Translations under genes and position numbers: made by a program
Part shown: positions 35,601-36,291 of the stretch, piece by piece
Numbering within the stretch: the first letter of the stretch is position 1
How the letters are laid out: each line of letters begins with the position of its first letter
Notes under the pieces: model-generated
Databases searched by the model: none
Told to the model about the DNA's origin: nothing
Seen by the model: only the letters and a program-made list of their open reading frames with translations
Origin: Novakomyces olei
Lineage: Eukaryota
Length of the DNA: 64,000 nucleotides
Assembly (NCBI GenBank): GCA_016906335.1
Contig: JADEYG010000007.1
Span: 806,001 to 870,000 of the forward strand
Direction: 5' to 3'

Positions 35601-36203
35601 TGGGAAGGGTTCCCGAGTTATATTTGCTGTTGTACATGTATGACATGGTTCAATATCGTTGATTTTAATTAATTGTATTTTCCCTGTGGCTTTTCCGTTT
35701 ATCAGCTCTAGCAGGTACTGTTTATTTGTGTGGCCTAGCCTTTCGTGCCACAGTTTTGCCTTTTCGGCACTATCTTCAGTAACAGAATTTGAAATGTATT
35801 CGTTATGATAGATTGGTTTTGCAGTGAAATAAAATATATTATTATTTTTCTTGAGTCGCATAATTGGTTTTGCGTTGCTCATTAACGTTAACTTAGATTC
35901 GGCAATTGTCATGGAATTTTTTCCACTGAATGCCTGTAGAATGAGCGGATTGAATAAATTTGTGCCGTACTTAGGGGCATATAAGACGTTTGATAGGATC
36001 AGCGTTGATCCCAGGTCATCCCTAACTTTTAAAATTATTGTTCCAATTCCTGATACGGGAGAGCAATTGTCCTTCCCTGTTTGAATAGTAGATCTGATGT
36101 AATTTATTTTATTAAAGTATTTGATATCTGAGCATATGTGACTAGTGGCCCCTGTATCGAGAATCCACTCAGTGATATCTCCAGGTGTCCCTTTGTTACC
36201 TAG
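32613..36203 (-). CDS. pol: Copia pol (protease-integrase-reverse transcriptase-RNase H)
   Basis: Open from just after the TGA at 36204-36206: WILDTGATSH (protease), WHERLGH..C..C, HSDVCGP/TDNG/NGVAER (integrase DDE), KARLVAQG and YVDD (RT), GDSDFA..CDN..ADGLTK (RNase H). Confidence 0.93.
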   Translation of the reverse strand, partial: LGNKGTPGDITEWILDTGATSHICSDIKYFNKINYIRSTIQTGKDNCSPVSGIGTIILKVRDDLGSTLILSNVLYAPKYGTNLFNPLILQAFSGKNSMTIAESKLTLMSNAKPIMRLKKNNNIFYFTAKPIYHNEYISNSVTEDSAEKAKLWHERLGHTNKQYLLELINGKATGKIQLIKINDIEPCHTCTTANITREPFPNTGRSRPTGLFDLVHSDVCGPINLNSEFNYKYFVTFIEDLSGFTFIKLMKNKNEVTQIFAELIPFVKTQFGKMIKTLRTDNGLEYINAEMHELCKKHGIIHQTSTAYTPQQNGVAERANRTILSKARSLLLARKVPIKFWSDAVVTSCYLKNRLPTRIAPKTPYETIYKRPPNLDNLKVFGCLAIALDKHANNKTKLEQRGDEYIFIGYSETQKGYILSNLKNGKRVVSRNVKFLENEQINNSTATDYNENQIYSELTYKNNTEADTENKRDHDTTHPTQGINTTIIDNLPKLSSELSNKVPEQIKSPNSLSNTLETPQTPPDDTLNINKNSENPTQANSEENQSSDNLKDSIEDSTEPSGNKSNTDDEESDDPQSNMEIDNNLKNIESKNNSIIEIEEEPSLELISPGNQPARKRKTSSEQLGDEKFRKIDPLQEILSGERKLNLEGISKEKLKKILSPLFLKNGQRKILNRPKGGVNHIEAPDIEPQNYNEAITGPFGNQWKEAINKELKAMERNEVWKVVPQSQNIRTVGCRWVFKLKQGEQSNEIIRKARLVAQGYSQIFGKDYEDTYAPVARPDSIRWLLAYSVIKNYEIYQIDVDTAFLYGTLKESVYMKKPDGVKIKPGLVLKLNKSLYGLKQAPRSWNSELDSTLTKYGLTKSNKDSAIYYNDSLIIAVYVDDLMIVEKQKGKRLEFESFLKTFYSIKSLGKIKRYLGMDITYDRDKGILKLSQSQFAKSIIRTYGDTNLKYISQPITNINSLYHPADENYDCLEIYPTIIGKLIYLTEWTRPDLRFAISMLSKHTKRQNEEQIQALKHTMRYLNATLDTCITYTRENDLQIHSWGDSDFAGDTCDRKSRSGYVVSLGKNNGPIAWNSQKQKIVTPSTMMAEFEAMKLTVNQALYYKYLMDEINKGPDNIPIVYCDNNACILLATNGGNYQGSKHLSNTRYYVMDIVRNGLISIQRCPSRNMKADGLTKNLLGNKFTKFTKMLYNEE

Positions 36204-36291
36204 TCACAGGATAGGCTCAGTATTGTTAATCTTTACGTTATACACCGATTGTTTTTTTGAATTTTTGTATTCATGTTTTCTGCAATCTTTT

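Follow-up and report, generated by a model that had tools for sequence, protein, structure and literature searches.

The window analysed here, a 64,000-nt stretch of the Novakomyces olei genome (contig JADEYG010000007.1, positions 806,001 to 870,000), carries genes with introns that are fungal in character, among them ATG7, RFT1 and the gene for a mitochondrial carrier, together with a Ty1/copia element on the minus strand (44564-32270). The element is bounded by a 334-nt 5′ LTR of the form TG...CA (44231..44564) and a 289-nt 3′ LTR (32270..32558), both on the minus strand, and is flanked by a 5-bp target-site duplication, GTACC (44565-44569 and 32265-32269). The two LTRs differ solely in an internal TAT microsatellite, which has 30 units in the 5′ LTR and 15 in the 3′ LTR. 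A 14-nt primer-binding site of the half-tRNA type (44217..44230, minus strand) complements the anticodon arm of the host tRNA-Met(CAT), the anticodon stem of which has the matching A (tRNA gene in L142), and a polypurine tract (32559..32566, minus strand) adjoins the 3′ LTR. A half-tRNA-Met primer-binding site is also common to the single-ORF copia families of this genome (L145, L155, L142).

On the same strand, the 5′ part of gag runs from its ATG to the second zinc knuckle (43270..44138), a 3′ tail of gag ends in the residues EPIL (36207..36286), and pol follows as 1196 codons encoding protease, integrase and reverse transcriptase and ending in TAA (32613..36203). The Pol product contains a protease-like beta-barrel, an integrase, an SH3 domain and RVT_2 in copia order (Pol_BBD at 13-85, gag_pre-integrs, rve at 214-310 and RVT_2 at 718-956). 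The domain order from protease through integrase to reverse transcriptase with RVT_2, the TG...CA LTRs, the 5-bp duplication, the primer-binding site and the polypurine tract all place the element in Ty1/copia. The two parts of gag are separated by a nested Ty3/gypsy element on the plus strand (36292..43264), which has identical 639-nt LTRs (36292-36930 and 42626-43264) and a target-site duplication, CTTTT. Its insertion point is the second zinc knuckle of the copia gag, and the gag frame of the window copy runs out within the gypsy LTR, which leaves this copy unable to use its gag-pol junction from the gag ATG.

The gag-pol junction

Across the junction the minus strand reads GAG CCT ATC CTG TGA CTA GGT ... 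TGG ATT CTC GAT ACA GGG, which translates as EPIL*LG...WILDTG. A preliminary description of the window had proposed, after removing the gypsy, that gag and pol share one frame divided by a single stop, and this was borne out: the only stop is the TGA at 36206-36204 (feature 36204..36206, minus strand), beyond which pol is open from 36203 to 32613 for 1196 codons. The same relation holds in copies that need no such removal, as in the uninterrupted L003, L004 and L005 gag is open to the TGA for 318 codons from the first Met. We also confirmed that the first in-frame ATG of pol, at 35912 (codon 98), lies past the protease active site and beyond its DTG motif. In each of two diverged versions of the element, the first in-frame ATG comes only after the protease motif (offset 294 in family A, to which the window copy belongs, and 318 in L045). 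Immediately after the stop lies CTAG (36200..36203, minus strand), which has been described as a leaky 3′ context (PMC4207609). The remaining two frames are closed across the junction; together with the shared frame of gag and pol, this rules out a net frameshift. Reading of TGA as a sense codon by the host is likewise ruled out, since TGA, TAG and TAA all serve as terminators of long ORFs in the window. The junction thus has the layout of a gag-stop-pol element: a common frame, a single stop, no usable AUG for pol, and a stop that is fixed in the copies and retained in diverged relatives.

Conservation of the stop and its context

All the relatives compared here come from one genome, the 14.3-Mb assembly (15 contigs). 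TGA-CTAG was present at all seven family-A junctions found; six of these match one another throughout -20 to +90, the seventh differing at two upstream positions. An eighth family-A piece has its junction deleted and hence is uninformative. The LTRs of this family are identical bar the microsatellite, the target-site duplication is intact and most pol copies are 98.8-99.97% identical. The family-A copies are young and therefore do not constitute independent evidence. Searches with gag and pol recovered two sister lineages, B (L045 and the more decayed L028/L048, which is 92% identical) and C (L047). Over the 900 nt upstream of the junction, identity was 61.6% between family A and L045, 61.8% between family A and L047, and 70% between L045 and L047. 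We looked in these sister copies for a sense codon in place of the stop and found none, with TGA-CTA at 7/7 family-A junctions and 3/3 sister-lineage junctions. Judged from these copies, the stop is not a private mutation.

The conservation is sharply bounded. A, L045, L047 and L048 all keep GAG CCT ATC YTG TGA CTA, followed by T in the decayed L048 and by G in the other three, so that CTAG is found at nine of the ten junctions and CTAT at one. The resulting 19-nt block, GAG CCT ATC CTG TGA CTA G (36200..36218, minus strand), is retained at 18 of 19 positions in the two sister lineages. When every 19-column window was scored in the three lineage comparisons (1324, 958 and 1335 windows), the junction ranked top in each; its margin in the first comparison is small, with 19 windows scoring 17 against 18 for the junction, at a site that had been named beforehand and that came top in all three. 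Codons -4 to +1 are near-invariant, synonymous positions included, and codons -14 to -5 and +2 to +11 are variable. As a background, 104 of 230 degenerate codons for the same residue outside the block are identical between A and B. A genome-wide search with the junction pattern returned exactly these ten junctions and two unrelated matches with two mismatches, and none for the control; the two-mismatch matches (L089 and L090) are not related to the element. The stop between gag and pol remains TGA, whereas pol terminates in TAA. On this comparative evidence, the gag-UGA-pol junction of this fungal copia lineage is real and selected.

The 12 conserved nucleotides upstream of the stop go beyond what UGA-CUAG requires, and may trace to a predicted helix upstream of the stop, to the peptide EPIL or to partial repetition of the primer-binding site. 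More generally, another constraint (an RNA helix, a splice acceptor or a peptide) may account for part of the conservation of the block. The 7-mer TGAGCCT occurs on the minus strand both in the junction block (36220-36214) and in the primer-binding site (44225-44219). It is complementary to the anticodon arm of tRNA-Met, and the duplex ranked 33rd, 20th and 36th of 1450 windows in A, B and C, counting the windows of the primer-binding site itself; this complementarity to the primer tRNA may be due to chance.

The main rival to programmed readthrough is splicing, whereby a minority of transcripts would use the AG of CTAG as a 3′ splice site, removing the stop, and the block would be conserved as an acceptor. 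The block is indeed rich in pyrimidines, with TAG as its last three bases; 23 nt ahead of the stop, A, L045 and L048 have a branch-like YTRAY and L047 has TRAY, and splicing was one option raised for the Candida element Tca2 (PMC2194720). However, the TRAY sits on Asn/Asp codons and could be there by chance, an acceptor has no need of an in-frame TGA, and for an intron to keep the frame, its donor in gag must be in phase 1. GTR occurs in that phase three times in family A, each time as a weak site (no more than 3/5 of the consensus), and no aligned GTR shared between lineages is in phase 1. We regard splicing as unlikely.

The upstream extent of the block could also point to separate expression of pol, from an internal promoter or by non-AUG reinitiation, with the UGA as the true end of gag, and a weak internal promoter has been found in the Tca2 junction (PMC2194720). 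Such expression would nevertheless start with no in-frame ATG ahead of the protease active site, and it leaves unexplained both the shared frame of gag and pol and the retention of TGA-CTA across three lineages; in Tca2 itself, Pol followed the LTR promoter (PMC2194720). These points make separate expression quite unlikely.

The other copia families of the genome (L031-L037, L074 and L075) have no stop at this position: their gag runs into protease, and several are single ORFs of 1374-1401 codons. Such families could in principle have mobilised in trans copies that had inherited a nonsense mutation, and the decay of the B and C copies fits that account. It is, by contrast, at odds with a stop common to lineages that are about 62% identical while the pol of family A stays open for 1196 codons, and with the identity of only 30-43% between the single-ORF families and this element in matched pol segments. 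An inherited nonsense mutation is very unlikely, and is already largely refuted.

Beyond this genome, no close relative of pol was found: the search gave 1424 matches, the best 120 of which, at 31-38% identity, were generic copia proteins. A gag search over representatives gave 20 matches, none at E < 1e-10; the gag alignment search recovered none of 2565 candidates and found no relative among 55 stretches, and the junction pattern had no match in viral contigs. Two metagenomic loci in 171 stretches proved on inspection to be unrelated to copia.

In lineage C (L047/L078, contig C2 of the assembly G000, just after position 39361), similarity to pol is lost about 10 codons past the stop, where the sequence runs into TTAGGG-like units.

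Predicted RNA structure around the stop

The preliminary description had also named two sets of pairings around the stop. The longer-range one, TGTGACTAG spanning the stop with CTAGTCACA downstream, does form a predicted helix and is conserved, and the helix contains the stop itself. Its 9-bp 5′ arm (36200..36208, minus strand) holds the stop and its 3′ arm (36137..36145, minus strand) consists of codons for the T-S-H-I motif of protease. The predicted fold of A, like that of B, is a long hairpin with TGTGACTAG/CTAGTCACA as its closing helix, with predicted pair probabilities near 1.0 for this outer helix in both. A second predicted helix pairs 36220-36215, upstream of the stop, with a 3′ arm at 36128..36133 (minus strand).

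The other pairings, CCTG/CAGG and GAGA/TCTC, form an inner stem-loop (36151..36185, minus strand). They are present and coincide with the predicted minimum free energy fold of the 74-nt stretch, which was no more stable than shuffled sequences (z -1.06, 20/200). The full 131-nt stretch of family A gave z -2.49 (3/200 shuffles), and stretches beginning after the stop gave z -0.72, -0.56 and +0.26. The case for the inner stem-loop as a 3′ stimulator in family A is weak: it is not conserved in sequence, its 5′ arms differ between A and B in sequence and register, and 284/2000 linker shuffles matched it. With the first 8-11 nt after the stop masked, it gives way to a different hairpin further 3′.

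Over the stretch from -4 to +70, the sister lineage B gave z -6.5 in L045 and z -3.9 in L048, against -1.8 in A; the junction was the best 90-nt folding window in L045 (of 85) and L048 (of 114), and in family A it lay outside the best 8 of 174 windows. When the bases covered by the ribosome were masked in L045, a hairpin was kept after an 11-nt spacer, and linker shuffles matched the post-stop hairpin in 5/2000 cases for B, 49/2000 for L048 and 284/2000 for A. The 11-nt spacer falls in the range of stimulators reviewed in PMC13517186. Synonymous recoding of the downstream sequence reached the observed energy in 6/1000 cases in A and 0/1000 in B, and created the 9-nt complement in 28/1000 and 16/1000, respectively. 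The proposed covariation check gave no support: the 13 outer pairs compared over three sequences have no compensatory change and one one-sided change. These results are to be read with folding windows that were picked after viewing family A, a lineage C that is without the downstream part, and a folding method that cannot predict pseudoknots. An Rfam search over 35900-36290 gave no match at E up to 1. A conserved RNA structure is likely on these predicted folds.

Any such structure would act under known constraints. For decoding in the ribosome, the stop has to be unpaired together with the four bases that follow it, and stimulatory structures begin at least 8 nt after the stop (PMC13517186). 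Because the outer helix holds the stop and these four bases, it is not a direct stimulator. One conceivable role is a two-layer RNA switch, in which the hairpin would bury UGA-CUAG in the conserved 9-bp helix and the 5′ TGAGCCT could pair with the anticodon arm of the primer tRNA; a ribosome at the stop would melt the outer helix, leaving the inner hairpin at the entry channel. Were this true, readthrough would be coupled to the packaging or priming state of the RNA. We found no regulated readthrough signal of that kind for copia elements in the literature searched, and consider the switch improbable.

A stop buried in a predicted helix (pair probabilities near 1.0 for both A and B) could also suit A-to-I editing, which would turn the UGA into a Trp codon in part of the RNA. 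A conserved CUA after the stop would then be unneeded. Editing of fungal mRNA is described in filamentous groups and disfavours a G before the edited A, and ascomycetes are not known to have ADAR. We consider editing very unlikely.

Probable readthrough and comparable elements

From the layout, the fixation of the stop in family A and its retention in three lineages, we infer that programmed readthrough of UGA-CUAG probably sets the Gag:Gag-Pol ratio of this element. From one LTR-driven RNA, most ribosomes would end at the UGA and release a 318-residue Gag; in a minority, a near-cognate tRNA would insert an amino acid and translation would continue through pol to give Gag-Pol, the rate and the inserted residue being predictions. 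The chief signal would be the weak UGA-CUAG context, and in reporters in Ustilago maydis UGA-CU(A) is by itself enough for efficient readthrough (PMC4207609). The hairpin about 11-12 nt past the stop may contribute, a putative role that we judge plausible for the sister lineage and doubtful for family A. Compared with the preliminary description, the comparative support for readthrough is stronger and the case for the specific stem-loop is weaker.

Gag-pol recoding signals were reportedly surveyed by Gao et al. in 2003. The stop and 3′ context of this element are identical to those of type II UGA-CUA(G) sites, found in alphaviruses, in the fungal genes tpi1, art1 and rpe1 and in mammalian LDHB and MDH1. 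In alphaviruses, a 3′ stem-loop can increase readthrough as much as 10-fold (PMC3159437). These alphavirus structures, shown by mutagenesis, extend over 126-177 nt (PMC13517186), whereas here the helix includes the stop and the hairpin is significant in one of two lineages. In the host, none of four genes checked (PGK, two TPI and RPE) ends in TGA-CTA. When the genome was scanned for TGA-CTA joined to a peroxisomal signal, 133 sites matched, as did 125 for the control pattern, so the result is noise, and the repeated match was out of frame in a gypsy pol.

The layout itself is already known, if rare, being shared by the copia elements Tca2 and VdLTRE5, and UGA-CU(A/G) occurs in the gypsy elements Tj1, Tosmo and Tcry1. 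With both features in print in the reports available to us, the novelty is lower than the preliminary description implied. That description also cited UGA readthrough in Tca2, where it was not demonstrated (PMC2194720). In Tca2 (pCal) of Candida albicans, likewise a fungal copia, a UGA divides gag from pol within a single frame, as it does here, and its junction in S. cerevisiae gave 0.3% readthrough, equal to a control stop, and contained a cryptic promoter (PMC2194720). Its Pol derives from an LTR-driven RNA (PMC2194720). As Tca2 has the sole tested copia junction of the gag-UGA-pol layout, this result would by analogy count against readthrough here and calls for caution. The two junctions differ: in Tca2 a purine-rich spacer of 8 nt is combined with a putative pseudoknot, a signal of the Tca2/MuLV type, and its 300-nt junction gave no readthrough in S. 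cerevisiae (PMC2194720), whereas here the context is CUAG and is followed by a hairpin; Tca2 is set apart here by its published description. VdLTRE5 of Verticillium dahliae, also compared by description, is likewise a copia with UGA between gag and pol that coexists with a single-ORF copia family; CARYYA is absent from it, and the accessible text of its report contains no test of mechanism (PMC3441728).

The fission yeast elements Tj1, Tosmo1-3 and Tcry1 resemble the present one at the boundary of gag and pol, where an in-frame TGA precedes CTA or CTG. They keep GAA-TGA-CT at this position, which has been interpreted as programmed readthrough (10.1101/2022.12.06.519325), and transposition of Tj1 needs its stop (PMC4600332). 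By contrast with this copia, which uses tRNA-half priming and has Leu (YTG) before the stop, they are self-priming gypsy elements with GAA before the stop. The shared context is most likely convergent. In the literature searched, which was mostly without subscription papers and supplements, we found no copia element with a UGA-CUAG junction.

Among copia gag-UGA-pol elements, the one junction assayed so far, that of Tca2, failed its yeast reporter test. The lineage described here offers a canonical and sharply conserved 19-nt signal in three diverged versions, along with a natural CTAG-to-CTAT variant. If readthrough is the mechanism, copia and gypsy elements would appear to have reached the UGA-CU solution separately in fungi; textbook mechanisms are left unchanged.

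In four of the seven family-A copies with a junction, gag is split by a gap of 7-13 kb (window 36292-43264; assembly G000, C12:1367026-1373916, C13:9001-15899 and C5:9788-23045), and the insert has been identified for the window copy alone, as the gypsy. In C12 and C13 the break falls at roughly the same gag position. A further family-A derivative (L042/L019; G000, C7:1716742-1718469) has lost the stop and protease to an internal deletion, which leaves the integrase region fused in frame to the first zinc knuckle, with 602 open codons. In the nested gypsy of the window, gag and pol overlap with pol in the -1 frame, and the heptamer G_GGA_AAA (38172-38178, plus strand), 21 nt before the end of gag, is a candidate -1 frameshift site.
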